Source of the DNA: Anaerolineae bacterium
GTDB taxonomy: Bacteria > Chloroflexota > Anaerolineae > JAAEKA01
Direction: 5' to 3'
DNA length: 63,664 bases
Assembly (NCBI GenBank): GCA_032111745.1
Contig: JAULUH010000156.1
Location: forward strand, 1-63,664
Program-made: the position numbers and the translations under genes
Shown: positions 13,764 through 28,443 of the stretch, in pieces
Layout of the letters: each line of letters starts with the position of its first letter
Numbering within the stretch: position 1 is the first letter of the stretch
Notes under the pieces: generated by a model
The model's input: the letters and a program-made list of their open reading frames with translations, nothing else
Told to the model about the DNA's origin: nothing
Database searches by the model: none

Positions 13764-15422
13764 CTATTTGGCGCCCGTGCCAGCCCCTGGTAATAGCCGG
13801 CGCCAATCCTGCGGCTTGCTCCGGCGGCCCTGGCTGCCGCCAGTGCCACCATCACCACCGCCGCCCTCTTCATCCTGGCTGTAGTACTGGTGGTAGTAGT
13901 AGTAGTAGTATGAGCCACTACCGCGCGGCTGTATGCGGTTCAGCGACACGCCCAGGATATTCGCACCAACCTTCTCCAGCGCCTCCTTGGCGTTCTGAGC
14001 TATCTGGCGCCGGGTGATCCCGGCCTCGACCACCAACACCACACCGTCGGTCTGCCGGGCCAGGATGGCCGCATCGGTCACGGCCAGCGTCGGCGGGCTG
14101 TCCAGCAGAACTACATCGGCGCGATCCGCCAGCTGATGCAGCAGGTCGCGGAAGCGCTCCGAGCCCAGCATCTCCGCCGGGTTAGGGGGTAGTGGCCCCG
14201 TGGTAAGCACCTGCAGGTTTTCGTAGCGCGTATCCTGCAACAGGCTGTCCAGGTCGGGCTGGACTTGCAGCAAGGCGTTGGACAGGCCGATGCTGTTGGG
14301 CAGCTGGAACAGCCGGTGCAGGGTCGGCCGCCGCAGGTCAGTGTCCATCAGGATCACGCGCTGGCCCTGCTGGGCCATCACCAACCCCAGGTTGGCCAGG
14401 GTCGTGCTCTTGCCCTCACTGGGGCTGGAGCTGGTGATCATCAAGGTGCGAGGTGGATTGTCCAGCGCCGAGAACTGGATGTTGGTGCGCAAGATGCGGT
14501 AGGCTTCGGCAGTGGGAGACTTGGGCTGCAGCCCGGCCACGAGCTTCTGCTCCGGCGACTCGCCCTCGATCTGCGTCACGGCACCCAGGGTGGTTAGATC
14601 CAGCGAGTTCTTAATATCGTCGGGATTCTTCAACGTGTCGTCGAGGTAGTCCAACAGAAAGGCCGCCCCCAGGGCCAGCAGCATGCCGATCGCCGCGGCC
14701 AGCACGATGGTCAGGGCTTTGTTGGGTCCAATAGGCTCCGTGGGCAGCTCGGCCGGCGCGACGACGTTGACGGCATTGATGCCGCCGCCTACGAAGCCCA
14801 GGAGCTGGGCATAGTTGGCCTGATAGGTGGTCAGTTTCTGTTCCAGGGCTTGGATCTGGGTCTGGGTGTCGGCGATCTGGCGCGCGCTGAACATATTGCC
14901 CAGCTGCTGCCTGAGCTCGTCAACTCGAACGGTGGTTTCGTCGATGTTCCGTTCCAGGTCCTGCAGCTGCTTGGTCACGAAATCACGCCGATCCTGGGTT
15001 ACCTTGGCAACGCCGCTGGGGCTCTGCTCGATCAACTGGTTCGCCAGCTCGTTGGCTACGGCCTGCGCGCGCTGGGGGCTGGTGTCCGCAACGCTAATCT
15101 CGATCAACTGCGTGTTTGGCACCAGAGACACCGAATAGTTGGGCAACCATTTCAAGCCCAAGGCCTGCATCGTCGCCAGGCGCACCGTATCGCGACGAGC
15201 CAGCTCGGCGTAGGTCTGGGCCAACTGCTGGCCCAGCCACAGGTCGTTGGCTACCGGGTTGGGGTTCTCGATGGTGCTGCCGATCATCAGCGTCGTCTTG
15301 GCGCTGTAGACCGATGGTTGCTGGCGCGTAGCGATAAAACTGGCTGCCATCGCCACCAGGGTCGACAACAGGATAAGCCACAGCCATTTGCGAATGGTTT
15401 GAAAGTACTGGCGAAGTTCCAT
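13764..15422 (-). CDS. Polysaccharide co-polymerase (Wzz domain) fused to BY tyrosine autokinase
   Basis: N-terminal Wzz-like TM plus coiled-coil region. Walker A SSSPSEGKSTTLANLG, DTDLRRP, Walker B VVLLDSPP. C-terminal Tyr cluster GSGSYYYYYYHQYYSQ. Confidence 0.9.
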   Translation of the reverse strand: MELRQYFQTIRKWLWLILLSTLVAMAASFIATRQQPSVYSAKTTLMIGSTIENPNPVANDLWLGQQLAQTYAELARRDTVRLATMQALGLKWLPNYSVSLVPNTQLIEISVADTSPQRAQAVANELANQLIEQSPSGVAKVTQDRRDFVTKQLQDLERNIDETTVRVDELRQQLGNMFSARQIADTQTQIQALEQKLTTYQANYAQLLGFVGGGINAVNVVAPAELPTEPIGPNKALTIVLAAAIGMLLALGAAFLLDYLDDTLKNPDDIKNSLDLTTLGAVTQIEGESPEQKLVAGLQPKSPTAEAYRILRTNIQFSALDNPPRTLMITSSSPSEGKSTTLANLGLVMAQQGQRVILMDTDLRRPTLHRLFQLPNSIGLSNALLQVQPDLDSLLQDTRYENLQVLTTGPLPPNPAEMLGSERFRDLLHQLADRADVVLLDSPPTLAVTDAAILARQTDGVVLVVEAGITRRQIAQNAKEALEKVGANILGVSLNRIQPRGSGSYYYYYYHQYYSQDEEGGGGDGGTGGSQGRRSKPQDWRRLLPGAGTGAK

Positions 15423-15439: not shown

Positions 15440-17752
15440 TCACTTGATCCAGACCGGTTCCCAATCGTTGTGTTGATTGCTACTCACGTTGCGCAGGCTG
15501 GTACCGTTGGCGTTCATCACCCATAGCTGACGCCGGCCCTCACCGCGGTTGGAGTAGAACAGAATCTGGCTGCCGTCGGACGACCACGCCGGGGAGCGAT
15601 CCCACTCCCAGGTGTTGCGCGTCAGTTGGCGCAGATCGCTGCCGTCGCGTGCCACCAGGTAAACCTCGTCGTTGCCGGAGGAGTTGGAGACCAGGGCCAC
15701 GGTCTCGCCGCCAGGCGACCATACGGCATCAAAGGTGGCGCCTCGCACGCTGACCAGGCGCCGCCGGGAGCCGTCGATCTCATTCTGCACGATGACCTGG
15801 GGCCGGCGAGCCAGGTCCAGCTCCTCGAGCAGGCGCTCGGTGCCATCAGGCGATAGGGCCTGGCGAGCCACCGCGGCCTGGTAGGCCGGCAGATCCTCTG
15901 CCAGCAAGGGCTCTGCCTGGGTGCAGCCTTCCGTGCTGTTGACGCAAGCCGCATCGGCCACGAAGAGCTGGGGGGCTCCCAGCCGGTCGGACAGGAACAC
16001 GATCTTGTTGCGTAGCCGGTCCGGCACATCGCTCTCCGCCGGAATCGTGGGCAGCGGTGTCGCCGTGGGCACCTCCACCGCGACCTGGTTGGCCGGCGGC
16101 GTACCTGTGGTCAACGCACTGATGGTGGCATAGGCCGCCTGGGCCACCGCCGTCTGCTCGTTGGCTGCTGGCCCCAGGGACAAAGGCGTGGGGGTGGCCG
16201 TAGTGACCCCTGGTAGTGACACCACGGGCGGGCCCGCCTCCACGGTACGGGTAGCCTCGGCGATCGCATAGGCCAGTTGCGTAGCCACATTCTCCGCCGT
16301 CGGCGTATTGGTTACCACAGCCAGAATCGGCGTGGGCGTGGCGGTCACAGCATAGTCCGGAATCGGCGTCCACGTGCCTGTAGTCAGGGCCTGGGCCGTC
16401 GCGTACACGGCAATGGCCGTGGCTGTGGCATCATTGGCCGGCACGAGGGTCGGAATCACCACAGGCGGCAACCCCAGGGACTGGCGCTCTGCGTCCGCGG
16501 TTTCCTGGTTAACCGGTGTGGGCGTTGCGGTTACCATCGCGCGTGGGGTTGGCGCCGGTGTGCCGACCTCCATCGCAAAAGCGGTGGCGCTCAGGGCAAT
16601 AGCCGCGGCCGTCAACACGTTCTCCGGCGTTGGGGTGCTGGTCACCACAATGAAATCCCGGGTCGGAATCGGCGGCGGCGTGGCCGGAGGTGGGCCGTTG
16701 ATCACAATCAGCCTCGGGCTATTGCCCAGGGTCTCGGGTCCCTGGCCCGAGTCCCACGTGAACAGGTTATCAGGACCAGTCTCCGGGCCATCCAACCGAA
16801 ACACCAGCTGTGTCTTCTGATCGACGACCGCCTGCTCCAATACCTTCAACTGCTCTTCGCTGAGCACGAAGCGATTGGAGACCAGCGGCTTCACCTCTGT
16901 CTGGGCCACAGGAGGAACCAGGGACTGCACAACCGGGGCGTTGTGTAGTTCCTGATAGGTCAGCTGGCTCCAGCTCTCACCAACCTGGGGGGCCATCAAC
17001 TTGACCTCCCAGATGCCGTTGGCGCCTGGTTCCAGCCGGCTGTCGTCCAGGCCGGTGATCTCCAATGCCACATAGCGGATGGGCGCGCCGCGGGGGAGAC
17101 GGGACAGGTCAAATAGGATGGCACTGTGGATCAGGGCCTCCTGATACTTGCCGGCGTGCAGGAAAGAGTCGCCAAAATAGCTGTCGCGCGAGTCAAGGCT
17201 GCCGAACCATCCCACCCCAGCGGGCGATGGTGTGATCTCCACGCGAACCTCATCGCCGGCGATGGTTGGCACTGCGCCAGGCGCTTGGGCCACTGGCACC
17301 GAACCTGGCGCGTCCGCCAGTAGGGGCGGGGGTGGGGTTGGGATTGCACTGGTCGTGCTCGGGGCTGGCGCTGTCTCCGCCACCGTCGCCGGCGTGGGGG
17401 TGGAGGCACCAGGGGCAGCCAGCAAGCGTATCAGCTGCCATCCGGCGAGGAGCGCCACGACGCCGACCGCAGCCCATAGCACCCACCGCAGCCACGGCAC
17501 AGCCCGCTGCGGAGTTGCTGATTCGTTTTCATTATGCAAGGCGACGGGAGAGCCCTGAAGGCGCGCCTGAAAGCGCGGGCAATTGACGTGCTCTGCCGTC
17601 AAGCAATAATGGCTTTGGTGCTCTGCACTGGGCGAGTGCTCCCCGTCGCTGGGGAGAGCAAAACAGCGATGGCTCTCGCTGGCATAGCTGTAGCGCAAAG
17701 CCGGGTCGCTCTTGAGGCCCACATAGGGGCATACAACATCACCAGTTGGCAT
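15440..17752 (-). CDS. Membrane protein: Cys/His-rich cytoplasmic N-terminus, TM helix, Pro/Thr-rich region, TolB-like (PD40) beta-propeller
   Basis: Start placed at ATG MPTGDVVCPYVGL; the track start 17836 is a TTG. N-terminal motif: CPYVGL...HRCFA...HYCLTAEHVNCPRF. TM helix: WVLWAAVGVVALLAGWQLI. C-terminal PD40-type repeats: VWSPGGETVALVSNSSGNDEVYLV, PAWSSDGSQILFYSNRGEGRRQLWVMN. Confidence 0.75.
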   Translation of the reverse strand: MPTGDVVCPYVGLKSDPALRYSYASESHRCFALPSDGEHSPSAEHQSHYCLTAEHVNCPRFQARLQGSPVALHNENESATPQRAVPWLRWVLWAAVGVVALLAGWQLIRLLAAPGASTPTPATVAETAPAPSTTSAIPTPPPPLLADAPGSVPVAQAPGAVPTIAGDEVRVEITPSPAGVGWFGSLDSRDSYFGDSFLHAGKYQEALIHSAILFDLSRLPRGAPIRYVALEITGLDDSRLEPGANGIWEVKLMAPQVGESWSQLTYQELHNAPVVQSLVPPVAQTEVKPLVSNRFVLSEEQLKVLEQAVVDQKTQLVFRLDGPETGPDNLFTWDSGQGPETLGNSPRLIVINGPPPATPPPIPTRDFIVVTSTPTPENVLTAAAIALSATAFAMEVGTPAPTPRAMVTATPTPVNQETADAERQSLGLPPVVIPTLVPANDATATAIAVYATAQALTTGTWTPIPDYAVTATPTPILAVVTNTPTAENVATQLAYAIAEATRTVEAGPPVVSLPGVTTATPTPLSLGPAANEQTAVAQAAYATISALTTGTPPANQVAVEVPTATPLPTIPAESDVPDRLRNKIVFLSDRLGAPQLFVADAACVNSTEGCTQAEPLLAEDLPAYQAAVARQALSPDGTERLLEELDLARRPQVIVQNEIDGSRRRLVSVRGATFDAVWSPGGETVALVSNSSGNDEVYLVARDGSDLRQLTRNTWEWDRSPAWSSDGSQILFYSNRGEGRRQLWVMNANGTSLRNVSSNQHNDWEPVWIK

Positions 17753-17870
17753 CAGAAGCTTTGTTTTTCCTTTTTTCACCTGTGGAGTCGACACTCGGTG
17801 GAGCGCGATTATACCACCTTCACAAGGCCGGGACAATTCGGGCGGTCGAGCTTGCGCCCCTTCATGCCCG

Positions 17871-18731
17871 TTACCCTTCCATCTGCCCCCTTGCTGCGGA
17901 CAAGGCCTCCAACAGAAATGGCCACAGGTCCGTTGTAGGACGATAACGCAGGCGGTACGCGGGTACCTGCGCCGCCAGGCGTTCCACCACGGCCAGCCAG
18001 GCCAGGGCGCTGGATACCCGCTCTACGGCCACCTTTTCGGTCGCCAGCAGGCCCAGCGCGGCCTGGCCGGGATCCAGCGGCTCCAGCGCAAACTCTGGCC
18101 CATGTTCCAGTAGCAGCAAGGCCTGCAGAGGCAGGCGACGGTTACGGCGTTGCACCATTTCCGGCGGCGTACTGGCGCCCCAAAATGGCGTGCTCGCCAG
18201 CATGGGCTGCGTCCCGGCCAGTGACACCACCAGGGTCTCGTCCGTCAACACCTCCGCATATCCCGCCGCCAGCCGCGATAGCGTGGTCTTGCCTGCACCC
18301 GATGGCCCGCAGCAGGCCAGGCCCATGCCGTCCAACACGATCGCTGCGCCGTGCAACAGCAGCCCCTCATGTTCCCGGGGTAGGGCCTGCATGCAGATGA
18401 AGCCCAGCACCCGATCCAGGGCCGATGGCGCCCGTTCCGGCGACGGCGTGCTGACCTCAGCCCGTCGCTCGACCAGGTCGATCCATCCTTCGTGTGCGGA
18501 GACTCCGAAGCGAGTCACGTCGCCCTCGTGCACAACCCAGGGCGCGTCCTGGTCGGACCGGCTGGCAGCGTGGATCACGGCCACATCCCAGGGAGGCATC
18601 TCGCCCGCCGGCGCGCCTACCGGCAGACCAAATTCAGCATAGCGCGCGACCAGGGCCGCCAGCCAGGTGCGCTCCGGCACGTGCACCACGCAGCGCACGC
18701 CGGCGATGTCAACGGTGAAGTCGTGGAACAT
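17871..18731 (-). CDS. HPr kinase/phosphorylase-like (HprK-related) P-loop protein
   Basis: 286 aa. The C-terminal half has LLLHGAAIVLDGMGLACCGPSGAGKTTLSRL, matching the HprK C-terminal P-loop. No HPr or PTS context is present. Confidence 0.75.
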   Translation of the reverse strand: MFHDFTVDIAGVRCVVHVPERTWLAALVARYAEFGLPVGAPAGEMPPWDVAVIHAASRSDQDAPWVVHEGDVTRFGVSAHEGWIDLVERRAEVSTPSPERAPSALDRVLGFICMQALPREHEGLLLHGAAIVLDGMGLACCGPSGAGKTTLSRLAAGYAEVLTDETLVVSLAGTQPMLASTPFWGASTPPEMVQRRNRRLPLQALLLLEHGPEFALEPLDPGQAALGLLATEKVAVERVSSALAWLAVVERLAAQVPAYRLRYRPTTDLWPFLLEALSAARGQMEG

Positions 18732-18773: not shown

Positions 18774-19961
18774 CTACGAGCTAGGAGGCTTGGAGGACTG
18801 CGCCTGGCTGGTGAGCAGCTCCCGGAGGCCCAGCACCCAGCGGTAGGGATAGGCCAGGGGTACCAGCCAGTCGCTGTCAAGGGCGTAGCGCTGCCGCATA
18901 TAGTTGCGTGATGGAAACAGATGGGCCAGGGCAAAGGGCACTCGGGCCCGCCAGCCTGGTAGGCCGGCCAGGTCGGCCCAGAAGCGCTGGGCCACCGGTC
19001 GCTCCGGCGCAGTGAGCCAGCTCACCACGCGCTGCTCCACCGGCGATACCGGCAGGGCCAGCGCCTCGGCCAGCTGCGCCTCAGGAATGGGTACCGCCCA
19101 CTCCCCGGCCAGCTCTGCCAACACGCGCTGCACGGGCGTCACCAGGTGAAATGCGCCGGCCTTCTCAAGCAACATATCCCAATCGATCAGGGCGCCGGAC
19201 AGTGCCACCAGGGTGGCGATGTCATAGAACCAGCGCAGCCCCACCCCTTTGTGATGCAGCACCAGGTGCGCCGACAGATAGAGCAGATTAGCCTCCGGGC
19301 TCAGCACCTGCGCAGGCCGCCCGGCCAAAGTGAGTTCTCGGGCCGTCTGCCAGAACCAGTCCGTGGCCAGCCTCTCCTGGTAGTAGGGTGCATCTAGTAG
19401 ATACCAGTGGATTTCCAGGGTCACCGGCACCACGCCCGGCCGCCGCAGGGTGATCTCGTTCTCGTACGCCAGGGTCAGCCCGGGGTGCGGCTCATCGTGA
19501 ACCCGCCCGTAGCCCAGGGCCTCCAGCTGCGCCACTGCGGCCAGAACGTCGTCAGCGCGAAACAACAGATCGACGTCGGTCATCGGGCGCAGGGCAGCGT
19601 TGCCGTATAATTCCTCGCCCAGAGCTGCGCCCTTGAGCACGATCACAGGTAGGCCTGCGGCGGCCAGCGAGTCCAGCGCCTCGGCCAGCCCCATGCCGAC
19701 ATAGGCATTCTGGATCGCGGTCTGCTGGTAGATCCACAGCAGTGCTTCCTCCACCGGGGCTGGCACCAGGTCACGACCGCGCACTGCGTCGTAAAGCAAT
19801 GGCCCCACGCCCACCGGCCCGACATGTTCCAGAAGGCCAGGCCAGTCCAACTCGGGTCTGGTGGCCTCGCTGCGCGCAGCGTCCAGCGCCGCCGGTTCCC
19901 AACGGCTACGCAGGCATTGCACGAGGAAATCCCAGGTTGGTTGATCCAATTGAGCAGGCAT
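18774..19961 (-). CDS. Uncharacterised nucleotidyltransferase family protein (NTP_transf_5-like)
   Basis: VIVLKGAALGEELYGNAALRPMTDVDLLF and TLEIHWYLLD motifs typical of this family. The start is 9 nt after the C25 gene stop. Confidence 0.7.
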   Translation of the reverse strand: MPAQLDQPTWDFLVQCLRSRWEPAALDAARSEATRPELDWPGLLEHVGPVGVGPLLYDAVRGRDLVPAPVEEALLWIYQQTAIQNAYVGMGLAEALDSLAAAGLPVIVLKGAALGEELYGNAALRPMTDVDLLFRADDVLAAVAQLEALGYGRVHDEPHPGLTLAYENEITLRRPGVVPVTLEIHWYLLDAPYYQERLATDWFWQTARELTLAGRPAQVLSPEANLLYLSAHLVLHHKGVGLRWFYDIATLVALSGALIDWDMLLEKAGAFHLVTPVQRVLAELAGEWAVPIPEAQLAEALALPVSPVEQRVVSWLTAPERPVAQRFWADLAGLPGWRARVPFALAHLFPSRNYMRQRYALDSDWLVPLAYPYRWVLGLRELLTSQAQSSKPPSS

Positions 19962-19970
19962 GCATTGCTC

Positions 19971-22898
19971 TCAGTGCGCCGCTGCCGGCACCAGAGCCCA
20001 ACCTTTCGTCACGTGGGGCAGGTACATCCTGCCTCCAGACGGCACGCGCAACCGGAGCGCAGGATCACCCAAGAAGACCGTGGTGTCCACGACGTCGCGT
20101 GAGCTACTGCCACCGGCGATGAAATAGGCCTTCGCCGCGTTAACCGCGAGCCCTGCCCGGTCTGTTCGATCCTGGAAGATGGCCCTCGACAATCCCTGGT
20201 CCAGCCCCAGCAGGGAACCGCCTACGTGAAGCCCGGTAGGCGACAGGTCAGCCACCACACCCCGGCCTGGAGTGAGCAGCAGCACTTCGCCCAGGGAGCG
20301 CTCGTCAAAATTGTACGTGGCGATGCTCTGAATGCCGACGAAGTAGCCGGACCAACAGGTGTAGTGGGCGCTGAAAGGTAGGCCCGCCCCAGGGGCGAGG
20401 GTAGCAGGATCGAGAGTGTTGAATACGTCGACGGTTCCCCAGCGGAAGCGCGAGGCGTGGCCGTACCACTGCAGGTAGAGGGCACCTTCGGCAAACGCGG
20501 TCTTGATGGCAGCACGTACCTCAGGGCCCGAATCGTGGGCACTATCCATGTTGAAGTAGATCGCCCGGCTCTGTGTGCCGGGGGGCAGGGCCAGGCGCAC
20601 CGTGTCGCTGAGCCGGTGGAAGTTGCCGGCAGGATCTGCGTTGTTGTCGGCCACGAACACTGCCCGGCGCTGCCAGCTACCCGCTGGCGCAGTCTTTTCG
20701 TAGGCGATGATCTTGTCGACCACGGCCGTGACGTCTGCGGGGGTCTTGGCCGGGATGCGGCCTAGCGCCATGTCGGGCATGTAGTCATTTGGGCCGTCCA
20801 CGCTGACATAGCGGTTGTCTGCAGCGGTCTCACCGATGAACGGATCGATGTGCAGCAGATAGGGAGGGAGAAGGTTGGGCAGGCTGGGAGCCACCGCACC
20901 CTTGAAGTCGATGTGGCCATCTCCCACCAGTAACACGTACTGCGGCGGCGCTTGGCCCGCATTCCAGTTGCGGTAGGCGTAGGAAAGGAAGGAGCGGATC
21001 GCCTCCGGATCCACACGGCCGAAGCTGAACTCGTCGTAGATGTCCTGCACGTCCACCTTGGCCACCCGCAGCCCTTCGGCGGCCCGATGGTTCAGTAAGG
21101 GCTGGACAGCATCCCAGAGGGAGAAGTGGACGATGGCGATGTAATCGGCCCGGTTGCCCGGGGCGCGCCAACTCGAGGGCTGGTCCACTTCCACCGCCCT
21201 GGGCGCCAGCAGGCCAGCATCGCTGCTAAGCACGTAGCGAGGCGCGGCATCCGCAGCCTGCCAGGCATCCCAGAAGCGTATCGTGGTGCTGCCGCCCACG
21301 GCCTCGGCCTGCACGGTGCCCAGCTGCACCGGGCGCAGGGGATTGCGCACGTCCAACACCCGCACGGCACCGGTGGTGAACCCGGTGACAGACACCTGCG
21401 CGCGCTGGCCAGTGACGGCCAGGCCGTCGATCCCGATTTGGTCGTTCTCGGCGTCAGCGCGCGCTGGATATGTGATCTCCACCCAGTCAGGCGAGACCCA
21501 ATAGCTGGAAACAGTGGGCAGCTGGGCTAGCGCGGCCTCCAGGGTAATACGGCTGGGGGAGGTGTCGAGCCAGGCCGCGGGCACCGCGGCCTGGGCTACG
21601 AACGGGGTGCTGCCATCCCAGGTGAACACTCCGGCTGGCTGGCCGTTCACCTGCAGGGCCACGGACTGGTCGGGCGCCGCGGCCTGGGACTGGCCGCCGT
21701 GCAGGCGAGCACGGATGGTGGCGGAATTGGACTTAGAACTTAACGGCGAATGGGTAGAAGGCGGAACGGATAGCGCTTGCGGGGCCAGGTCATCGAGGAC
21801 AAAGTCGTAGGTCACACGGGCGGTGGGGGACTGGGTGTTGACAGAGAGCGGGTTGTCGAAGAAATGGTCGACGTCCCTGGGAAGGGGGTAGGTACTGTAG
21901 TAGATCCGGTCGAACTCGACCCGCGCGGTTTGGAGGATGGTGATGACGAGAGGCTCGGAACCGGTGGGGGGCACGTCGCGGCGTTGCACACGGCCGCCGG
22001 CCGCGCCGCCATAGGCCAGACGGTAGACGTTGCGCGTCGTATAACGGCCCTCGTAGGGCTCGCCGTAGAAGACCACCAGGTCACCAGCATCGAAGCGGCC
22101 ATCGTCGCTGCCGGTCACCAGGATATCCACTGGCTGGCCCAGATAGGTCATGGAGAAAGTGGCCGGGTTCAACGAAGCCACGGGCACGCCCGCGGCCTGC
22201 AGCTCGCCATAGGTCAGGCGATACAGGCCGCCGCGCCCGGTGTAGACACGCACTGCACCCTGCTCCGCGGCGGGTTGCTGTGCAACCGCGGTAACGGGCT
22301 CGAGTGCCTCCGGCTCCGGGGCCACAGGCGTAAACGACAGGGTAATCCCTAGGTCGGGATGATAACGCAGCTGGCCAGATACAGGGTTAACCTGGAACGG
22401 GAACACGGTTACCGGCAATAGTCGCCGGCCGCGCTGGACCAGTTCGGGGCCGGTCACGACCGGGCTGGCGGGGTAAAAGGCATCGGAGGTGTAGATGACG
22501 GGGTCAGGCCGGTCCACCAAGGGTACCGATCCTGGCAGGTCGGGTTGGGTCGTCCAGCTCTCTGGGTAGTTAAGGTCCAGCTCCGGCACGGGTACTGCCG
22601 GTAGCGTGCCGGGAGCCGCCAGCACTTGCGGGCCGGTCGACTCATAGACCAGGTGCCACTGGCCCTCGGGCGGCAGCTCCACCAGCGTCGACCACACAGG
22701 CAACGCCGGCGCGCCGGGCGTGTCGTGCGCGGCGTAGCCCTCCACGCGCAGGCCATCACCGTCAAGGTGGTAGGTGGGAGTCTGCACGCGCAGGGTGATC
22801 GGCTCAGGCTGTTCAGGCCTCGCCGCAGCGGGCGTCACAGAGGCCAAAAGCACGCCAACGACCAGTAAGAGGGCTAAGGCTTTCGTACGAATCGACAA
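19971..22898 (-). CDS. Secreted peptidase C25 (gingipain-like) family protein
   Basis: TTG start with GAGGA SD and signal peptide ALALLLVVGVLLASVTPAAA. C25 core: YVLLVGDGHIDF...DNRYVSVDGPNDYMPDMALGRIPA. Putative catalytic His in LQWYGHASRF and Cys in SAHYTCWSGYF. Confidence 0.8.
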   Translation of the reverse strand: MSIRTKALALLLVVGVLLASVTPAAARPEQPEPITLRVQTPTYHLDGDGLRVEGYAAHDTPGAPALPVWSTLVELPPEGQWHLVYESTGPQVLAAPGTLPAVPVPELDLNYPESWTTQPDLPGSVPLVDRPDPVIYTSDAFYPASPVVTGPELVQRGRRLLPVTVFPFQVNPVSGQLRYHPDLGITLSFTPVAPEPEALEPVTAVAQQPAAEQGAVRVYTGRGGLYRLTYGELQAAGVPVASLNPATFSMTYLGQPVDILVTGSDDGRFDAGDLVVFYGEPYEGRYTTRNVYRLAYGGAAGGRVQRRDVPPTGSEPLVITILQTARVEFDRIYYSTYPLPRDVDHFFDNPLSVNTQSPTARVTYDFVLDDLAPQALSVPPSTHSPLSSKSNSATIRARLHGGQSQAAAPDQSVALQVNGQPAGVFTWDGSTPFVAQAAVPAAWLDTSPSRITLEAALAQLPTVSSYWVSPDWVEITYPARADAENDQIGIDGLAVTGQRAQVSVTGFTTGAVRVLDVRNPLRPVQLGTVQAEAVGGSTTIRFWDAWQAADAAPRYVLSSDAGLLAPRAVEVDQPSSWRAPGNRADYIAIVHFSLWDAVQPLLNHRAAEGLRVAKVDVQDIYDEFSFGRVDPEAIRSFLSYAYRNWNAGQAPPQYVLLVGDGHIDFKGAVAPSLPNLLPPYLLHIDPFIGETAADNRYVSVDGPNDYMPDMALGRIPAKTPADVTAVVDKIIAYEKTAPAGSWQRRAVFVADNNADPAGNFHRLSDTVRLALPPGTQSRAIYFNMDSAHDSGPEVRAAIKTAFAEGALYLQWYGHASRFRWGTVDVFNTLDPATLAPGAGLPFSAHYTCWSGYFVGIQSIATYNFDERSLGEVLLLTPGRGVVADLSPTGLHVGGSLLGLDQGLSRAIFQDRTDRAGLAVNAAKAYFIAGGSSSRDVVDTTVFLGDPALRLRVPSGGRMYLPHVTKGWALVPAAAH

Positions 22899-23053: not shown

Positions 23054-24622
23054 CTAGCGCTTGCGGCGCTGCGCCACGAACGCTGCGGCCATGGCCAGGC
23101 CGGCCGTGACCGGGACAGCCACCAGCGGCAGGCTCGCCGCGGCAGCACTACCGGCGTTCGCGCTCTGGCTGGAGAACTCGCTCAGGGTGACCGCGGTGGG
23201 ATCCAGGCAGGCGGCGCCGGCCGGCCCGCTGAGAGCAGTGGCTCCGCCGAGGTCGACGCTCTCGACCCAGTAGTAGTATGTATTGCCGGTAACGGCCGTG
23301 CTGTCCACGAATTGGTAGGCAGCACCAGTGGTGCTACCGGGGACCTTGGACGGGATCAACGCGGCGTTGACCTGCTCCCGGGCACCGTCAACCGCAGTGC
23401 TGCGGTACACGTTGAAGCCCTGGTTATTTACCTCGCTCACCGTCTCCCAGGAGACCGTGGCGACGCCGGCGGAGCAGGTGGCTCCCAGGCTGGACATTTC
23501 CAGCGCAGTCGGACCTGCGGTATTGGTGAAAATGCACGTGGTGATCTCGCCCAAGGCCACATCCACCGTGACCTTCCGGTTGGTCAGGTCAACGTTGCCT
23601 GTGGTCTGCCCGTTCCTGGTGCACACCAGGCTGGACAGGGTCCAGCCCTCTTCGCCAAGATCGAACACCTCCTCCACCGTGTAGCTGCCGGCTTCGGCGA
23701 TGATCAGCTTTTTGGGATCCTGCGTATCGGTCAGAGAAAAGGTCTGGGTGTAGTCATTCGGGCCTGTGACGCCGAAGTCGAACACGTGGTTGGCACCCGG
23801 TGGATTGGTCACCTTGTCGACGATGATTTGCCCCGGCGCAATAATCTTGCCCCACAGGCAGGCCACGTTGTCGGTGCGTTCCTCGGTGATGAACTCCGTC
23901 TTCGTGCTGTCTTCGCCGGGGAACACCTGCTCAAGGCAGTTGCCGTTGGGCGGATCGGGGACGAAGCCCAGAATCTGCAGGGTGTATTCGGTACCTTCGC
24001 ATACGAAGGTAGTGCTGGGCACGCTGTCCACGGTCACCCTGTCCGGACATATCGTGTCTCCCTCATATTTGCACGGTTCCTGGTTAAAAGTCTCCTCGAG
24101 GTTGAATCGGTAGACCAACTCCGGTGTCACCGTGGAGTTGTCATTGCAGGTCACTGGTACCTTCACGGTCAGGTCCACGTAGTTGAGCGGATTCGGGAAG
24201 TTCAGCAGCGGGTTATTGTAATGAGTGAACTGGCCGAGGTAGAAGGGGGTCTGGGGAGCCAGATCGCCAACATCGTTATTGCCGTCGAAGCCGAAGCCGC
24301 TGCGGTCGCCAATGGGGCCGCAGTTCTCTCCAACCTCGCCATAGCGCACCTGGTTTTCGTCAGTGTCAGGCGGTGTCTGTATGGCTGGATCAGATTCGCT
24401 GCTTGCGGTCGGGAAGTCTCCCGGCCCAGTGGCCCAGGCATCACAGGTAGCTCCCTCTTCGTGAATTCCTGGCTTGGCATCTGGGATACCCCACACGCCG
24501 TCGACATTGCCCACGGCCAGAGCCGAGGCCACGGCGACGAGCAGCAACGTGATCACTGTAGCCAGCGTCACGGCTCTCGCTCCAACCGGTAGATGTCGCG
24601 ATATTCGCTTGCGAAAGGACAT
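23054..24622 (-). CDS. Secreted multidomain surface protein with C-terminal anchor-like tail
   Basis: Start set at AAGGAGG-ATG MSFRKRISRH (track start 24712 unlikely) with signal peptide VTLATVITLLLVAVASALA. A prealbumin/SpaA-like module (IIVDKVTNPPG...CIFTNT) is followed by an FN3-like 'WETVSEVNNQGFNVYRS...YYYWVESVD' module. C-terminus: AVTLSEFSS...LPLVAVPVTAGLAMAAAFVAQRRKR. Confidence 0.8.
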   Translation of the reverse strand: MSFRKRISRHLPVGARAVTLATVITLLLVAVASALAVGNVDGVWGIPDAKPGIHEEGATCDAWATGPGDFPTASSESDPAIQTPPDTDENQVRYGEVGENCGPIGDRSGFGFDGNNDVGDLAPQTPFYLGQFTHYNNPLLNFPNPLNYVDLTVKVPVTCNDNSTVTPELVYRFNLEETFNQEPCKYEGDTICPDRVTVDSVPSTTFVCEGTEYTLQILGFVPDPPNGNCLEQVFPGEDSTKTEFITEERTDNVACLWGKIIAPGQIIVDKVTNPPGANHVFDFGVTGPNDYTQTFSLTDTQDPKKLIIAEAGSYTVEEVFDLGEEGWTLSSLVCTRNGQTTGNVDLTNRKVTVDVALGEITTCIFTNTAGPTALEMSSLGATCSAGVATVSWETVSEVNNQGFNVYRSTAVDGAREQVNAALIPSKVPGSTTGAAYQFVDSTAVTGNTYYYWVESVDLGGATALSGPAGAACLDPTAVTLSEFSSQSANAGSAAAASLPLVAVPVTAGLAMAAAFVAQRRKR

Positions 24623-25095
24623 GGATTCCTCCTTGCCACTGGGGCAACTTGTGCGGAGATGTCTCACACACTCAATGAACTGCAGCACGGAATGTGCGCT
24701 GATCCGACTCAAGAGATGGGCTGGCGTCCATCACGGGCCTACCGATGGAGAACCCTTGGCTTCATGTGCTGCTAGCCAACCTTCCGGCCACGTGATCGAG
24801 GACCGGGCTGGGCGCCCGGGACAGGACCTTGGCTCCATCCGATCCAAGGGCTGAAGTCGAAGGAAGCCGGGAGGGATGCCCTGAACACAGCAGCATCCGC
24901 ATCATGGCCGTGACGTGATGCGACCGCGGCCATGATGCGAGCTTCTTCAGGGGTGACAACGGATCAAGCCCGGTTCCCACCAGGCAGGCCCTAACGGCCA
25001 GAGAGCACGGTTCTGGGTCGGCACAGGGCCAGCTACCATCCATGGGACAGCAGGCCGTGAAGCGCCAGATGGATCCGTTGATCGTCAGGAGTGCT

Positions 25096-25290
25096 CTAGC
25101 AAACGCCGGTATCGCCGGCAGATGTGGCCAGAGGGCCCAGGAAGTTCTGCGGTCCCTCGATCGACTGCGGAGGGAAGCTCTCCTGGGCGCGAGCTTCCAG
25201 CGTTCGCTCGAACACGATGGATGGCTTCTCCCACGAGCGGCGGCTCGGGGATGCGATGGTCGTCGACGTCAGTCTGGACGGAGTCTGCAT
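25096..25290 (-). CDS. Candidate precursor peptide (64 aa) of the adjacent radical SAM/PqqD cassette
   Basis: AGGAGG SD 5 nt before ATG, 43 nt downstream of the rSAM stop on the same strand. Third-position GC is high, as in neighbouring genes. Sequence: MQTPSRLTSTTIASPSRRSWEKPSIVFERTLEARAQESFPPQSIEGPQNFLGPLATSAGDTGVC. Confidence 0.55.
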   Translation of the reverse strand: MQTPSRLTSTTIASPSRRSWEKPSIVFERTLEARAQESFPPQSIEGPQNFLGPLATSAGDTGVC

Positions 25291-25333
25291 GAAATCCTCC
25301 TATGAGTGGTCAAACTGATAGCTTGGTCGCGGT

Positions 25334-26560
25334 CTATCCGTTCATCGGCAGTGCAAACCCGTCGATTCCGTCCAGTAGAGGGATCGGCTGGGCGAACGGC
25401 GTAGAGTTGGCTGCCGGCGGGTTGATGCGCAGGCGAGCCTGCAGAGGTGTCTCCGGGATCGCTTCTCCCGGATGCAGCTGGGCAAAGCGAGCCTGGGCCT
25501 GCTGGCAGGCCAGTGAATGGCCGCCGTACAGGTCACCGTGCTCTTTCCAGGCCAACCCGGAGCATCGTCCTTCGCAATAGGCGTTGATCGAGCACACCTG
25601 GCACTCGGGCAGGCTCTTGAAGGTGTGCCGCGCCTGTAGCTCTTGCAGGATAGGTGCGTTGGCCCAGATATCGCCGAAGCGTTGCTGGCGCAAATTGCCA
25701 GCCGGGATGCGCAATTCCAGGCACGGATAGACATCACCGTACGGGCTGATCAGGCACGACGATAGGCCCACCGAACAGGTGCGACTCTCAGGCTGCCGCA
25801 CGAGAGGCCTGAACTGGCCGCCGTCGGCGAGCATCGCTGCGGTAATCTGCAGGCGATCCAGCTGATGCTGGCCTGCCTTGTCGGTGCCATCGTCGGCCGT
25901 GGAAATCTTGAATACCTGCTCATAACGCACACCCAACTCCTGCGCCAACTTGATCATCTGCTGGCGCTCAGCGATGTTCAGATCCATCAGCAGGGTGTTG
26001 AGCTTCACCGGCACCCGCCGCTCCTGCAGGAGCTGGACTCCCCGCAGGACACGGCGCAGGGTGTCCTGGCTACGAGCGATGGCATCGAAAGTAGCCGCCG
26101 AGGCGCCCAGAAGGCTGATATCCACCCGAGACGGTGCCAGGGAAGCGATGCGATCGGCCCGCTCCGGTGTGATCAGCGTGCCGTTAGTCTTGAGATTGAC
26201 GTCAAAGCCCAGGGCCCGCGCTCGTTCGGCGATGCTGAAGAAATCGCGGCGGGCCAGAATCTCGCCACCGGTCAGGGTGAGCCGCAGGGTGCCGGCCTCC
26301 GCCAACTGGTCCAGCACGTGGAGGCACTCCTCAGTGTCCAGCTCCGGTTGAGCCAGAGGCACATTATAGCACATGATGCAGTCCAGGTTGCAGACGTGAG
26401 TCAGCTCCCACAGGACTGTAAACGGCACGTGCTCGCGCTTCAACCGAGACAGCAGCGCCTCGTACGGATCCGCCGCGCTATCGGGCACAGCGCAGCCATC
26501 GAAGCTGCGGTCCACGGGATCGGCGACCTGGGGTACGGCCAACGGGATCATCGTCGTCAT
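25334..26560 (-). CDS. Radical SAM enzyme with C-terminal SPASM-type auxiliary-cluster domain (peptide-modifying type)
   Basis: CNLDCIMC (CxxxCxxC) near residue 60. C-terminal Cys-rich region: CSVGLSSCLISPYGDVYPC ... CQVCSINAYCEGRC. Start taken at ATG 26560; the track TTG at 26566 is also possible. Confidence 0.9.
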   Translation of the reverse strand: MTTMIPLAVPQVADPVDRSFDGCAVPDSAADPYEALLSRLKREHVPFTVLWELTHVCNLDCIMCYNVPLAQPELDTEECLHVLDQLAEAGTLRLTLTGGEILARRDFFSIAERARALGFDVNLKTNGTLITPERADRIASLAPSRVDISLLGASAATFDAIARSQDTLRRVLRGVQLLQERRVPVKLNTLLMDLNIAERQQMIKLAQELGVRYEQVFKISTADDGTDKAGQHQLDRLQITAAMLADGGQFRPLVRQPESRTCSVGLSSCLISPYGDVYPCLELRIPAGNLRQQRFGDIWANAPILQELQARHTFKSLPECQVCSINAYCEGRCSGLAWKEHGDLYGGHSLACQQAQARFAQLHPGEAIPETPLQARLRINPPAANSTPFAQPIPLLDGIDGFALPMNG

Positions 26561-26575
26561 GTCCAACTGCTCAAC

Positions 26576-26848
26576 TCATTCTACCCAATCCACCAGGCCC
26601 CTGGTCTCCAGGTCAGAGAGAAACTCCGCCACCTGCTGTCGGGCCTCGGACAGCGACACCTCAAAGTCCTGGGTCAGGAGGGCGGCAATCTCATCCATGG
26701 TGCGGCTGCCGTCGGCCAGTTCCCAGATGCGCGACCCGGTGGGATTCAACATGCGCACCGTGTTCTCGGCCGGGCTGATGATAACGGCGTCCTGGCCGAA
26801 GACTCGCGAGGCCGTGCGTGGGCTGTGTAGGGGCTTGCGCTGATCCAC
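26576..26848 (-). CDS. PqqD-family protein (RiPP recognition element-type peptide chaperone)
   Basis: 90 aa with AGGAG SD and a GTG start. VIISPAENTVRMLNPTGSRIWELADGSRTMDEIAALLTQDFEVSLSEARQQVAEFLSDLETRGLV is a textbook PqqD/RRE pattern. Confidence 0.85.
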   Translation of the reverse strand: MDQRKPLHSPRTASRVFGQDAVIISPAENTVRMLNPTGSRIWELADGSRTMDEIAALLTQDFEVSLSEARQQVAEFLSDLETRGLVDWVE

Positions 26849-26876: not shown

Positions 26877-26905
26877 ATTCTAAAGCAAGTCTAAACGGCT
26901 GTCAA
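26877..26905 (-). promoter_or_regulatory. Sigma70-type promoter TTGACA-17-TAGAAT for the PqqD-rSAM-peptide unit
   Basis: Minus strand reads TTGACAgccgtttagacttgcttTAGAAT in the 92-nt gap after the sugar-transferase stop, ~22 nt upstream of the PqqD start. Confidence 0.6.
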
Positions 26906-26940: not shown

Positions 26941-28443
26941 CTATTGACCCTTCAGTTGTAGCATCACAGAGATAGTGCGCAAGATGATGCGCAGGTCCAG
27001 CAGCATGTTGGCGTTCTTGACGTAGTACAGGTCATATTCCAGCTTGATACGCGAGTCGTCTACGGTGTTCCCGTAGCGATACTGCACCTGGGCCCAGCCG
27101 GTGATCCCTGGCCGCACCGCATGCCGGGCCCGGTAGAGGGGGACGGTCTTGGCCAGGCTCTCCACGAACTCGGGCCGCTCCGGCCGCGGGCCGATGAGGC
27201 TCATCTCACCGCGCAGCACGTTGATGAACTGGGGCAACTCGTCAATACGGGTCTTGCGCATGACACGCCCGGCCGGCGTGATGCGATCGTCGCCCGATCT
27301 AGCCCACACGGCGCCGGTGTGCTTCTCGGCATCCGGCACCATGGAACGAAACTTGATACAGTGGAAGGGCCGGCCACCTGCGCCCACGCGCCACTGGCGG
27401 TAGAACAGCGGCCCAGGAGAGAACATCCGGTTGGAGATAGCCACGAATGGGATCACCAACGCCAGCACAGCCATGCCGGCCAGGGAGGCGGCAAGGTCCA
27501 CCACCCGTTTGGCGACCAGGTACAATCGGTGGCCTGCGTCCTCATCCATGGGCAATGCGTCGCTCAAGTTGCGCCCCACGTGTTGCACGGGCACCCGCGC
27601 CAGCAGGCGCTCGTAGATGGTCGACATGGTGGTCACACGCAGGCCCAGCTCCCGGCAGCGCAGCAGTTCGTCGAACAGCCCGTCGACGATGTCATGCCGG
27701 TGGGTGATGGCCAGGATGATCTCATCCACATCCAGCGCCTGGGCCATGGGCACCAGCACACTGTGGCCTCCTAGCACCGGAATGCCCCGGACATCCTGAC
27801 CGTTCAGCTGCACCGAGTCGTCGACAAAGCCCATGATCTGATAGCCCGTGCCTCGATAGGGGTTGGCATCGTCCGGAGCCGTCCTAAACATATCCACCAA
27901 CGTGCGGCCCGCCAGGCCTGCGCCCACCACCAGGGCGCGCTGCGTGAAGCGGGGCTGCGCAAACAGGTTGGCATAGACAACGCGCCAGGCGGCGATGCTC
28001 ACCAGCGCCAGCCCGCCAAAGATGAAGATGATGCCCCGAGAGATCAGAGGAGGGGTCAGCTGCGGGATGAAGGTATAGACCAGCACCGTAGTTGCCACTG
28101 CAGCCGCCACGTTGCGAATGCTGTTCATGGTGCTGGCGGCGCGCGCCAGATCATACACGTCGAAGAACAGAGCTACCAGCCCCCATACCACCGTCAGGGT
28201 AATGTACCATTTGAAGGGGTCCAACAACTGGGCCAGCGTATCGGGCGTATCGTTGCCCAGGGCCCAGGCCACCATCAGCGCAGTGTTGAGCAAAAGAACA
28301 TCTATTATGAACAACAACACCTTGCGCTCTGAATTGCGCAGGCGCAAACTGGCCCCAGCCCCGCGTTTGGGTGACGTCAGAACGTAATCGGCCTTGCTCC
28401 GGTTGGATAAGCCTTCGTTGAAGCCTCTGGAGTCGAGACTCAT
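26941..28443 (-). CDS. Exopolysaccharide priming polyprenyl-phosphate sugar phosphotransferase (Bac_transf family, WbaP/EpsB-like)
   Basis: N-terminal TM bundle, a central nucleotide-binding-like domain (ALVVGAGLAGR) and the canonical C-terminus: GPLFYRQWRVGAGGRPFHCIKFRSM...DDRITPAGRVMRKTRIDELPQFINVLRGEMSLIGPRPERPEF. Confidence 0.9.
   Translation of the reverse strand: MSLDSRGFNEGLSNRSKADYVLTSPKRGAGASLRLRNSERKVLLFIIDVLLLNTALMVAWALGNDTPDTLAQLLDPFKWYITLTVVWGLVALFFDVYDLARAASTMNSIRNVAAAVATTVLVYTFIPQLTPPLISRGIIFIFGGLALVSIAAWRVVYANLFAQPRFTQRALVVGAGLAGRTLVDMFRTAPDDANPYRGTGYQIMGFVDDSVQLNGQDVRGIPVLGGHSVLVPMAQALDVDEIILAITHRHDIVDGLFDELLRCRELGLRVTTMSTIYERLLARVPVQHVGRNLSDALPMDEDAGHRLYLVAKRVVDLAASLAGMAVLALVIPFVAISNRMFSPGPLFYRQWRVGAGGRPFHCIKFRSMVPDAEKHTGAVWARSGDDRITPAGRVMRKTRIDELPQFINVLRGEMSLIGPRPERPEFVESLAKTVPLYRARHAVRPGITGWAQVQYRYGNTVDDSRIKLEYDLYYVKNANMLLDLRIILRTISVMLQLKGQ

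Follow-up and report, generated by a model that had tools for sequence, protein, structure and literature searches.

A one-cysteine peptide encoded beside PqqD and radical SAM/SPASM genes in an Anaerolineae contig: candidate precursor of a RiPP-like family of Chloroflexota

What does the small open reading frame (ORF) at 25096-25290 in a contig of an Anaerolineae bacterium (JAULUH010000156.1) encode, and what would the radical S-adenosylmethionine (rSAM)/SPASM enzyme encoded just before it do to its single Cys? The whole stretch analysed, 63,664 nucleotides, is called the window here. An earlier reading of the sequence (the original prediction) had proposed a precursor peptide modified at its extreme C-terminus. 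The window was compared with related loci from Chloroflexota metagenome-assembled genomes (MAGs) and metagenome contigs, which are designated by L-numbers (L001, L035 and so on). On balance, the ORF is probably the precursor of an undescribed Chloroflexota family resembling the peptides made on ribosomes and modified after translation (RiPPs), in which PqqD and the rSAM enzyme would install a thioether on one Cys, a kinase and an NTP_transf_5 protein would decorate the peptide, and a C25 peptidase would process it. The elements at the centre of this proposal are as follows.

25096-25290, minus strand: precursor peptide gene, 64 amino acids plus a TAG stop (from translation, third-position GC, synteny, substitution rates and family size)
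25296-25301, minus strand: Shine-Dalgarno sequence AGGAGG, 5 nt 5' of the ATG (read directly from the sequence)
25180-25233, minus strand: leader recognition motif W20 to Q37, WEKPSIVFERTLEARAQ (from conservation; presumed PqqD-binding site)
25099-25146, minus strand: core region N49 to C64, NFLGPLATSAGDTGVC, with the G-Φ-Φ-G-P-L-x-x-S motif and the single Cys (codon 25099-25101)
25334-26566, minus strand: radical SAM/SPASM peptide maturase (PF04055 and PF13186)
26576-26848, minus strand: PqqD-family RiPP recognition element (RRE) or peptide chaperone (PF05402, E = 4.5e-18)

The small ORF is a real, selected gene of a conserved peptide family. The translation quoted in the original prediction, ending in ...SAGDTGVC and followed by TAG, was reproduced exactly, and the strong Shine-Dalgarno sequence, the gene-like base composition and the place downstream of the enzyme gene all held up as well. 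The GC content at third codon positions (GC3) is 0.785, against 0.76 to 0.81 in the flanking genes and just 0.59 in an overlapping plus-strand ORF (25042-25305). The ORF lies 43 nt past the rSAM/SPASM gene, which itself follows the PqqD gene. Two close homologues (86% and 77% identity) occupy the same syntenic spot past the rSAM gene. The ratio of nonsynonymous to synonymous substitution rates (dN/dS) relative to L001 is 0.19 overall and 0.065 for codons 19 to 64, the first 18 codons evolving almost neutrally.

Twenty Chloroflexota MAG loci found via the rSAM enzyme, from Anaerolineae, Caldilineae, Thermoflexales and Ardenticatenaceae, carry a homologous ORF of 60 to 70 residues downstream of the rSAM gene on the same strand; in 19 of them it follows immediately, L017 being the exception. 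Altogether, about 30 loci of Chloroflexota have a peptide homologue that comes after the orthologous PqqD and rSAM/SPASM genes and lies beside them in the same orientation, as in a RiPP precursor locus. Searches with a profile of the peptide returned 101 clusters at 90% identity and 133 at 50% identity; where the source gives a name at all it is “hypothetical protein”, and none of the clusters has a Pfam domain. Alignment of the small ORFs downstream of orthologous rSAM genes confirms that the ORF itself is conserved across syntenic loci, and the synteny of PqqD (the RRE) with the rSAM/SPASM gene bears out the proposed link between a precursor-type peptide and such an enzyme.

Past the peptide stop codon, about 230 nt (24860-25095 of the window) show 78% identity across the window, L001 and L006, and a role in processing or attenuation 3' of the precursor gene is possible for this region. 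In the window it holds a strong hairpin (arms 24900-24910 and 24927-37), of which L006 retains only part, for which reason a terminator or attenuator assignment was dropped. An Rfam search of window positions 24500-25500 gave zero matches.

The peptides consist of a variable N-terminus of about 18 residues, the leader motif (consensus W-x-x-P-x-I-x-[LF]-E-R-x-L-x3-A-Q), a variable spacer rich in Pro and Gly, the core (G-Φ-Φ-G-P-L-x-x-S-G...G-x-C) and 0 to 10 trailing residues. The conserved leader motif is thus separate from the conserved core, as is characteristic of RiPP precursors. Across an alignment of 23 syntenic peptides, W20, P23, E28, R29, L31, G52, L54 and C64 are invariant, and I25, A35, P47, P53 and S57 are at least 90% conserved. 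C-terminal residues were counted in 98 full-length family members, all of which have exactly one Cys past the leader. It stands 6 to 12 residues (mode 9) beyond the Leu of G-P-L, with a conserved Ser 3 to 9 residues upstream of it (at GPL+3 in 89 of the 98). Position -1 from the Cys is variable, position -2 is Gly in 67 peptides, and the eight commonest residues at position -3 (G, S, T, A, P, Q, K and D) do not include Asn.

The presence of this Cys follows the presence of the rSAM gene. A one-Cys peptide is encoded in 29 of 29 distinct loci with an orthologous rSAM gene, and Cys-less peptides in seven of seven loci where the peptide gene comes straight after PqqD and no rSAM gene is found (2 × 2 exact test, about 1e-7, uncorrected for phylogeny). 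L034, L035, L116 and L118 came from the peptide profile search; L045, L048 and L067 came from a PqqD-based scan of metagenome contigs. The Cys-less peptide genes are located as follows.

L034, 1013-1153: Cys-less peptide
L035, 8001-8165: Cys-less peptide
L045, 834-1046: Cys-less peptide
L048, 2184-2411: Cys-less peptide
L067, 5277-5477: Cys-less peptide
L116, 1923-2099: Cys-less peptide
L118, 1948-2127: Cys-less peptide

Peptides of the Cys-less subfamily have the same leader and the same GP[LF]-S/T motif and end a few residues past it, often with Ser or Thr as the last residue (for example ...FGPLTS, ...GPFSTTTT and ...DPFLGPLSTSGT). Their cassettes contain an orthologous PqqD and, where the contig is long enough, a C25 gene next after the peptide. 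GΦΦGPL-S/T is equally conserved in cassettes lacking the rSAM gene, and it is the Cys-bearing extension that comes and goes with the enzyme. More distant sister cassettes, with leaders of the Y-x-K-P-x-[IV]-[IV] type, divide in the same way. Those with an rSAM enzyme (35-40% identity) have Gly/Ser-rich cores with two to four Cys (L059/L060, ...GGVCQASGTSASCSLGGCSCGLAS; L089; tentatively L112), and those without have Cys-less cores (L071, L083 and L108). The C25 gene is again right past the peptide in L059, L071 and L108.

L059, 3142-3291 (= L060, 3733-3882): sister peptide with rSAM
L089, 6991-7137: sister peptide with rSAM
L112, 2113-2274: sister peptide with rSAM, tentative
L071, 1492-1668: sister peptide without rSAM
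L083, 5520-5699: sister peptide without rSAM
L108, 228-356: sister peptide without rSAM

A neighbour-joining tree of the 85-residue PqqD was judged too weak to order these events, and a bootstrapped tree of C25 proteins (939 columns, 40 replicates) was used instead. In 40/40 replicates of this tree, L067 (rSAM-less) is nested with L007/L010/L020 (rSAM-containing); a distant clade separates into an rSAM-containing pair (38/40) and an rSAM-less pair (34/40), and the main clade of rSAM-containing loci does not include L034, L045 or L116, which branch outside it. The placement of L067 together with the split in the distant clade implies that the rSAM gene was gained or lost independently at least three times, each event being matched by gain or loss of Cys. 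This points strongly, if indirectly, to the Cys as the residue that the enzyme needs. The single Cys, whose tie to the enzyme had been part of the original prediction, is very probably the rSAM-dependent site, given that the two co-vary without exception (29 loci with, 7 without). The same gains and losses mark the rSAM step as an addition to a more ancient system made up of PqqD, the peptide and C25; the GPL-S/T core, common to Cys-less, rSAM-less relatives, would predate that step.

The rSAM enzyme has the CX3CX2C motif at C59, C63 and C66, and eight conserved Cys in the SPASM region indicate a full SPASM domain. Its orthologues form more than 120 clusters at 60-92% identity. PqqE is the top sequence match in the PDB, where BlsE, SkfB and CteB are matched as well; the best full-length NCBIfam matches are StsB (131.5 bits) and MftC (124.6 bits, residues 47-337), with AlbA (56.7 bits) also matched full-length. 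In the mechanism that we propose, the separate PqqD protein would bind the leader at W..P.I..ER.L and present the core to the rSAM/SPASM enzyme, which would carry three Fe-S clusters and modify the C-terminal extension bearing the single Cys. The likeliest reaction would be a single intramolecular thioether from the Cys sulfur to a carbon of a nearby residue in the Ser/Thr/Gly-rich segment, with no link to Asp and no need for a free C-terminal Cys. A thioether appears the likeliest chemistry of the rSAM step because of the precedent of sactipeptides and ranthipeptides, among them NxxcA with its single Cys-to-Asn bridge made by an rSAM/SPASM enzyme (PMC8326336), and because of the multi-Cys sister peptides. 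The older GPL-S/T core would presumably be served by the other conserved partners. The candidates in the window are listed here.

19971-22898, minus strand: secreted Peptidase_C25 (PorU/gingipain-type) cysteine peptidase (PF01364, E = 1.3e-73), candidate leader peptidase or transpeptidase
18774-19961, minus strand: nucleotidyltransferase-fold protein (NTP_transf_5, PF14907, E = 6.3e-48), candidate for accessory tailoring
17871-18731, minus strand: HprK-like (ScmC-family) P-loop protein, a putative peptide Ser/Thr kinase (TIGR04249 ScmC, 1.6e-7, and HprK_rel_A/B, all weak)

Neither the C25 protein, nor the kinase with NTP_transf_5, nor the GΦΦGPLxxS core motif appeared in the original prediction. 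The C25 protein has one N-terminal hydrophobic segment; its best PDB match is PorU (6za2), and the residues aligned to His211 and Cys244 of RgpB are conserved. In most loci its gene comes immediately past the peptide gene, with a gap of a few hundred bases or sometimes only about 20 nt. Where 7 kb separate the rSAM gene from the peptide gene (L017/L119), the peptide is still directly upstream of C25, so that the adjacency of peptide and C25 is tighter than that of rSAM and peptide. The secreted C25 enzyme, encoded right past the peptide, may be the processing protease that removes the leader, or a transpeptidase. The HprK-like protein would phosphorylate Ser or Thr, and NTP_transf_5 would then decorate the phosphate, as in the tailoring of paeninodin and pseudomycoidin. 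A profile of the HprK-like protein gave marginal, P-loop-centred matches to HprK and phosphoenolpyruvate carboxykinase structures in the PDB. Its homologues lie directly upstream of PqqD in L035 and L116, where they are annotated as ScmC (PF27840), and also in L009, L013, L014, L016, L018 and L023. NTP_transf_5 recurs in the cassettes of L013, L023, L031, L043 and L047; we rejected it as a universal member, since it was seen in about seven loci within the available flanks.

Several points weigh against this proposal. Among the 98 members no functionalised acceptor stands at a fixed distance from the Cys. The rSAM enzyme scores below every curated NCBIfam cut-off, and its best N-terminal matches are AhbD and NirJ of the heme pathway. 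The kinase assignment is built on weak similarity, and the kinase with NTP_transf_5 occurs in some loci only, within the available flanks. The C25 enzyme is secreted, whereas the tailoring enzymes are cytoplasmic, and a conserved exporter was not found in the cassettes of the loci compared. Note also that several contigs scored as rSAM-less are short, so an rSAM gene could lie elsewhere in those genomes.

Two side observations concern C25 and its spacing from the rSAM gene. In one Anaerolineales MAG (L119, 1-8210, which overlaps L017), an insertion between the rSAM and peptide genes encodes a PAS/GAF histidine kinase, a LuxR-type response regulator, a small ORF and a 1030-residue GEVED surface protein. 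In several cassettes the C25 protein ends in dockerin-like repeats (D.DCDG.V...D...V..HWG...YD.DGD..I), tails that are consistent with an extracellular, scaffold-bound enzyme.

L007, 7784-11566: C25 with dockerin-like repeats
L010, 7815-11567: C25 with dockerin-like repeats
L020, 7853-11632: C25 with dockerin-like repeats
L021, 1208-4561: C25 with dockerin-like repeats
L031, 11786-15508: C25 with dockerin-like repeats

Surface proteins encoded beside the cassette share a C-terminal module made up of YYYW[LV]EDVDL.G....HGPVS, 4-8 residues, PTAV[TA]L, about 12 residues, a transmembrane (TM) helix and RRR[KA]. The module resembles a tripartite sorting signal, for which the PorU-like C25 encoded alongside could act as sortase.

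23054-24712, minus strand: choice-of-anchor K surface protein (552 residues; NF038131 and NF038125) with a PTAV...TM...RRKR tail, module at 23054-23300; possible C25 substrate
L001, 13562-15217: surface protein with the shared module
L013, 7737-9545: surface protein with the shared module
L014, 7596-10685: surface protein with the shared module
L031, 15259-17316 and 18427-20640: surface proteins with the shared module
L032, 15461-17146: surface protein with the shared module
L033, 11493-12881 and 14314-16038: surface proteins with the shared module

In an alternative reading, the tailored peptide is not a free natural product and serves as the linker or acceptor with which the PorU-like C25 transpeptidase anchors PTAV-TM-RRR surface proteins, or exopolysaccharide (EPS), to the envelope. 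Cytoplasmic tailoring (rSAM-dependent Cys chemistry, phosphorylation of Ser, glycosylation or nucleotidylation) would come first, and the secreted C25 would then use the peptide. The closer linkage of the peptide to C25 than to the rSAM gene speaks for this idea, as do the sorting-signal-like tails shared by neighbouring proteins, the position of the cassette among EPS genes, and the identity of the closest solved relative, PorU, whose sortase-like mechanism is documented (PMC4560394). Against the idea, the peptide has no apparent export route, L031, L032 and L033 show no upstream EPS context, and a plain leader-peptidase role for C25 accounts for the adjacency more simply. We regard a linker role as unlikely. 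The secretion system of type IX (T9SS), with its A-type lipopolysaccharide (A-LPS), uses an amino-acid-bearing linking sugar; if the linker idea is true, the peptide would be a peptide-based counterpart of that sugar, and the system a new one for protein sorting in monoderm Chloroflexota.

Returning to the peptide as rSAM substrate, the enzyme might instead act elsewhere in the core or leave the Cys uncrosslinked, and we give each of these two possibilities a rather low probability. It could modify a non-Cys residue in GΦΦGPL...S, by epimerisation or a C-C or C-O cross-link, with the Cys only assisting, for instance as a ligand of an auxiliary cluster or in a disulfide. GΦΦGPLxxS is indeed the most conserved element of the core, and SPASM enzymes catalyse many reactions other than thioether formation (PMC8326336). 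This motif is just as conserved where the rSAM gene is missing, and the extension that tracks the enzyme is the one with the Cys. Alternatively, the Cys could be oxidised without a cross-link, for example to Cα-formylglycine as by the anaerobic sulfatase-maturating enzyme (anSME), giving an aldehyde handle near the C-terminus. The anSME is itself of the SPASM type, with one Cys or Ser as its target (PMC8326336), a conserved acceptor residue is not evident in the peptides, and a reactive handle would suit a peptide that becomes fixed to something on the cell surface, as the EPS and C25 genes nearby might suggest. Against such oxidation, anSME structures are not among the PDB sequence matches of the rSAM enzyme at E ≤ 1e-5 (those of PqqE, SkfB and CteB are), and the sister cores with two to four Cys, rich in Gly and Ser, look like multi-thioether peptides. 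The anSME is not known to use a PqqD partner.

The original prediction had suggested the D-T-G-V-C terminus as the site of modification, either through oxidative chemistry on the terminal Cys, for which decarboxylation or another change of the kind catalysed by MftC would be the model, or through a PapB-type thioether from Cys to Asp (or Thr). That the Cys is linked to the rSAM enzyme agrees with this, the window peptide and its two closest relatives do have a terminal Cys with Asp at -4, and MftC is among the best full-length NCBIfam matches. MftC acts on the terminal Tyr of MftA, and the C-terminus here has no Val-Tyr; the MftC score of 124.6 bits is far under the cut-off of 265. No residue trails the Cys in 12 of the 98 peptides; one does in 57 and two to 10 do in 29, and these 1 to 10 trailing residues in 86 of the 98 argue against MftC-like decarboxylation as the chemistry of the family. 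The Cys-Asp link fares no better: Asp is at -4 in seven of the 98, any Asp or Glu at -1 to -6 in only 20, and the C-x3-D motif of PapB has its Cys first, the reverse of the D-x3-C order in the window peptide. A terminal Cys is therefore correct for the window peptide and incorrect for the family at large; the aligned homologues conserve the leader, GΦΦGPLxxS and a Cys near the end, and not a terminal G-V-C or D-x3-C. Both details are lineage-specific, and a modification that depends on them is very improbable. As for a chance open frame, the 61% GC window does hold many overlapping ORFs, but the dN/dS of 0.19, the protein-level conservation at one syntenic place across Chloroflexota orders, the strong Shine-Dalgarno sequence and the gene-like GC3 refute it, leaving it next to no probability.

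The thioether proposal was also set beside named peptide systems, and the view that no described family fits was upheld. Pfam, NCBIfam and PDB profile searches with the window peptide and 85 family members gave no match. Neither the peptide family nor a link between C25 and RiPPs was found described in the literature, in which subscription journals were thinly covered, so that the cluster may already figure in a bioinformatic atlas among uncharacterised groups; in a 2023 review of the proteases that remove RiPP leaders, C25, gingipain and sortase all go unmentioned. Judged by its sequences, the cassette seems to work like an RRE-dependent rSAM/SPASM RiPP pathway and lies outside all the named families compared. 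By parts list it is closest to the SynChlorMet and HPr-rel-A cassettes defined in silico by Haft and to lasso peptides tailored by a kinase and a nucleotidyltransferase.

SynChlorMet (ScmC/D/E/F) and HPr-rel-A, both defined in silico only, share with the window an HprK-like P-loop protein, a PqqD homologue and an rSAM/SPASM enzyme, and the HPr-rel-A system also includes a nucleotidyltransferase. Scores fall short of the cut-offs for both SynChlorMet (ScmC 30.9 against 125, ScmD 35 against 100, ScmE 90 against 400, ScmF 80 against 400) and HPr-rel-A (PqqD_rel_X 26.9 against 35; HprK_rel_A/B 18.3 against 200 and 21.3 against 200). SynChlorMet has two rSAM genes, whereas the window cassette has one, with an identified precursor and a C25 peptidase. 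The phospho-lasso peptides paeninodin and pseudomycoidin likewise combine an HPr-kinase homologue, a nucleotidyltransferase and a PqqD-type RRE acting on a peptide. In the lasso peptides of Firmicutes, the homologous kinase places a phosphate on the precursor's C-terminal Ser, and the nucleotidyltransferase then extends this phosphate with hexoses (PMC8498205); the Cys-less peptides ending in Ser or Thr resemble such precursors. The lasso leader and core are unrelated to those of the present family, and the operon genes scanned gave no match to a lasso cyclase (Asn-synthetase-like) or B2 protease.

Mycofactocin resembles the cassette in its small peptide, discrete PqqD-like chaperone and SPASM rSAM enzyme acting near the peptide C-terminus. 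MftA ends in ...G-V-Y and its terminal residue is the substrate, whereas the window peptide has no Tyr and the Cys of its family is usually not terminal. The rSAM enzyme reaches 124.6 bits against the TIGR03962 cut-off of 265, and NCBIfam models bearing the names of other mycofactocin proteins drew no match from the operon genes scanned. The PQQ system (PqqA/PqqD/PqqE) also pairs a discrete PqqD with a SPASM rSAM enzyme. It differs in its Glu-x3-Tyr core, absent here, and the PqqE and PqqD scores are below cut-offs. The start of PqqA could be aligned to the leader W-x-x-P-x-Φ-Φ over only seven columns (hhalign E = 0.011, probability 4%), a short motif resemblance that does not demonstrate homology of the leaders.

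Ranthipeptides and sactipeptides with few bridges (NxxcA/NxxcB, SkfA/SkfB, the SCIFF maturases CteB and PapB, and StsB) have an rSAM enzyme with a SPASM domain (in SkfB, a twitch domain) acting on a Cys core past a leader. Their RRE is fused, while here PqqD is a separate protein and the partners include a C25 peptidase and an HprK-like kinase. The N-x-x-C motif of NxxcA/NxxcB is not found in the family; there is neither the repeated C-x3-D of freyrasin/PapB nor the Cys-rich core of SCIFF peptides, the core having one Cys; and the sactipeptide models are not reached (StsB 131.5 against 625, AlbA 56.7 against 850). PorU, the T9SS sortase, shares with the window protein a C25 domain with its His/Cys dyad. 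The match to NF033707 is partial (198 bits against 420), the loci are from Chloroflexota MAGs, in which no search aimed at T9SS components was made, and the window C25 is coupled to a small RRE-dependent peptide, a link not found described for C25 enzymes.

What is new here is an rSAM/RRE RiPP-type system with a C25 partner and an EPS context, and a large uncurated peptide family. If the thioether proposal is right, the system is widespread in Chloroflexota, a phylum with wastewater and sediment lineages such as Ca. Amarolinea. The gain or loss of the rSAM gene at least three times, together with the one-Cys C-terminal extension, would be a natural experiment that pinpoints the target residue. 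The most tightly linked partner, a secreted gingipain/PorU-type C25 enzyme, belongs to a protease class unusual for RiPPs, and the peptide family may represent the kind of precursor that belongs to Haft's “orphan” HprK-like/PqqD/rSAM cassettes. The setting among EPS and surface-protein genes hints at building of the envelope or matrix rather than antibiosis, and suggests that the product probably acts at the cell surface.

The minus-strand gene order in the window is EPS sugar transferase, PqqD, rSAM, small ORF, anchor-K protein, C25, NTP_transf_5, HprK-like protein, PD40/TolB-like protein and Wzc-like protein. An S24-like peptidase occurs in some cassettes and is absent from the window. The remaining neighbours are these.

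26941-28443, minus strand: EPS priming polyprenyl glycosylphosphotransferase (TIGR03025, above cut-off)
15440-17836, minus strand: PD40/TolB-like protein of 798 residues with C-terminal β-propeller repeats
13764-15422, minus strand: Wzc-like polysaccharide tyrosine autokinase/chain-length determinant, 56% identical to the L023 homologue, which matches TIGR01007

Both in the window and in L023 (107-1324), the PD40/TolB-like protein has a conserved place next to the cassette and the Wzc-like kinase. Polytopic membrane proteins are found in or beside the cassette in L007 (4047-5774), L010 (4062-5789), L020 (4021-5670), L024 (3051-4628) and L035 (4886-6469). One group, between PqqD and the rSAM gene, has a weak match to AftB-like glycosyltransferases of the C fold (GT-C), and that of L035 is a PMT_2 protein just upstream of ScmC. 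These proteins hint at extracytoplasmic glycosylation; homology between the polytopic groups of different cassettes was not detected, and a conserved GT-C partner is therefore not claimed. The EPS priming transferase is directly upstream of PqqD in L001, L007, L010, L020 and L024, and three genes separate the two in L035. In the window, a sigma-70-like promoter (TTGACA-17-TAGAAT, 11/12 consensus matches; 26877-26905, minus strand) stands just 5' of the PqqD start, which suggests that PqqD, the rSAM gene and the peptide gene can be transcribed apart from the upstream sugar-transferase gene.

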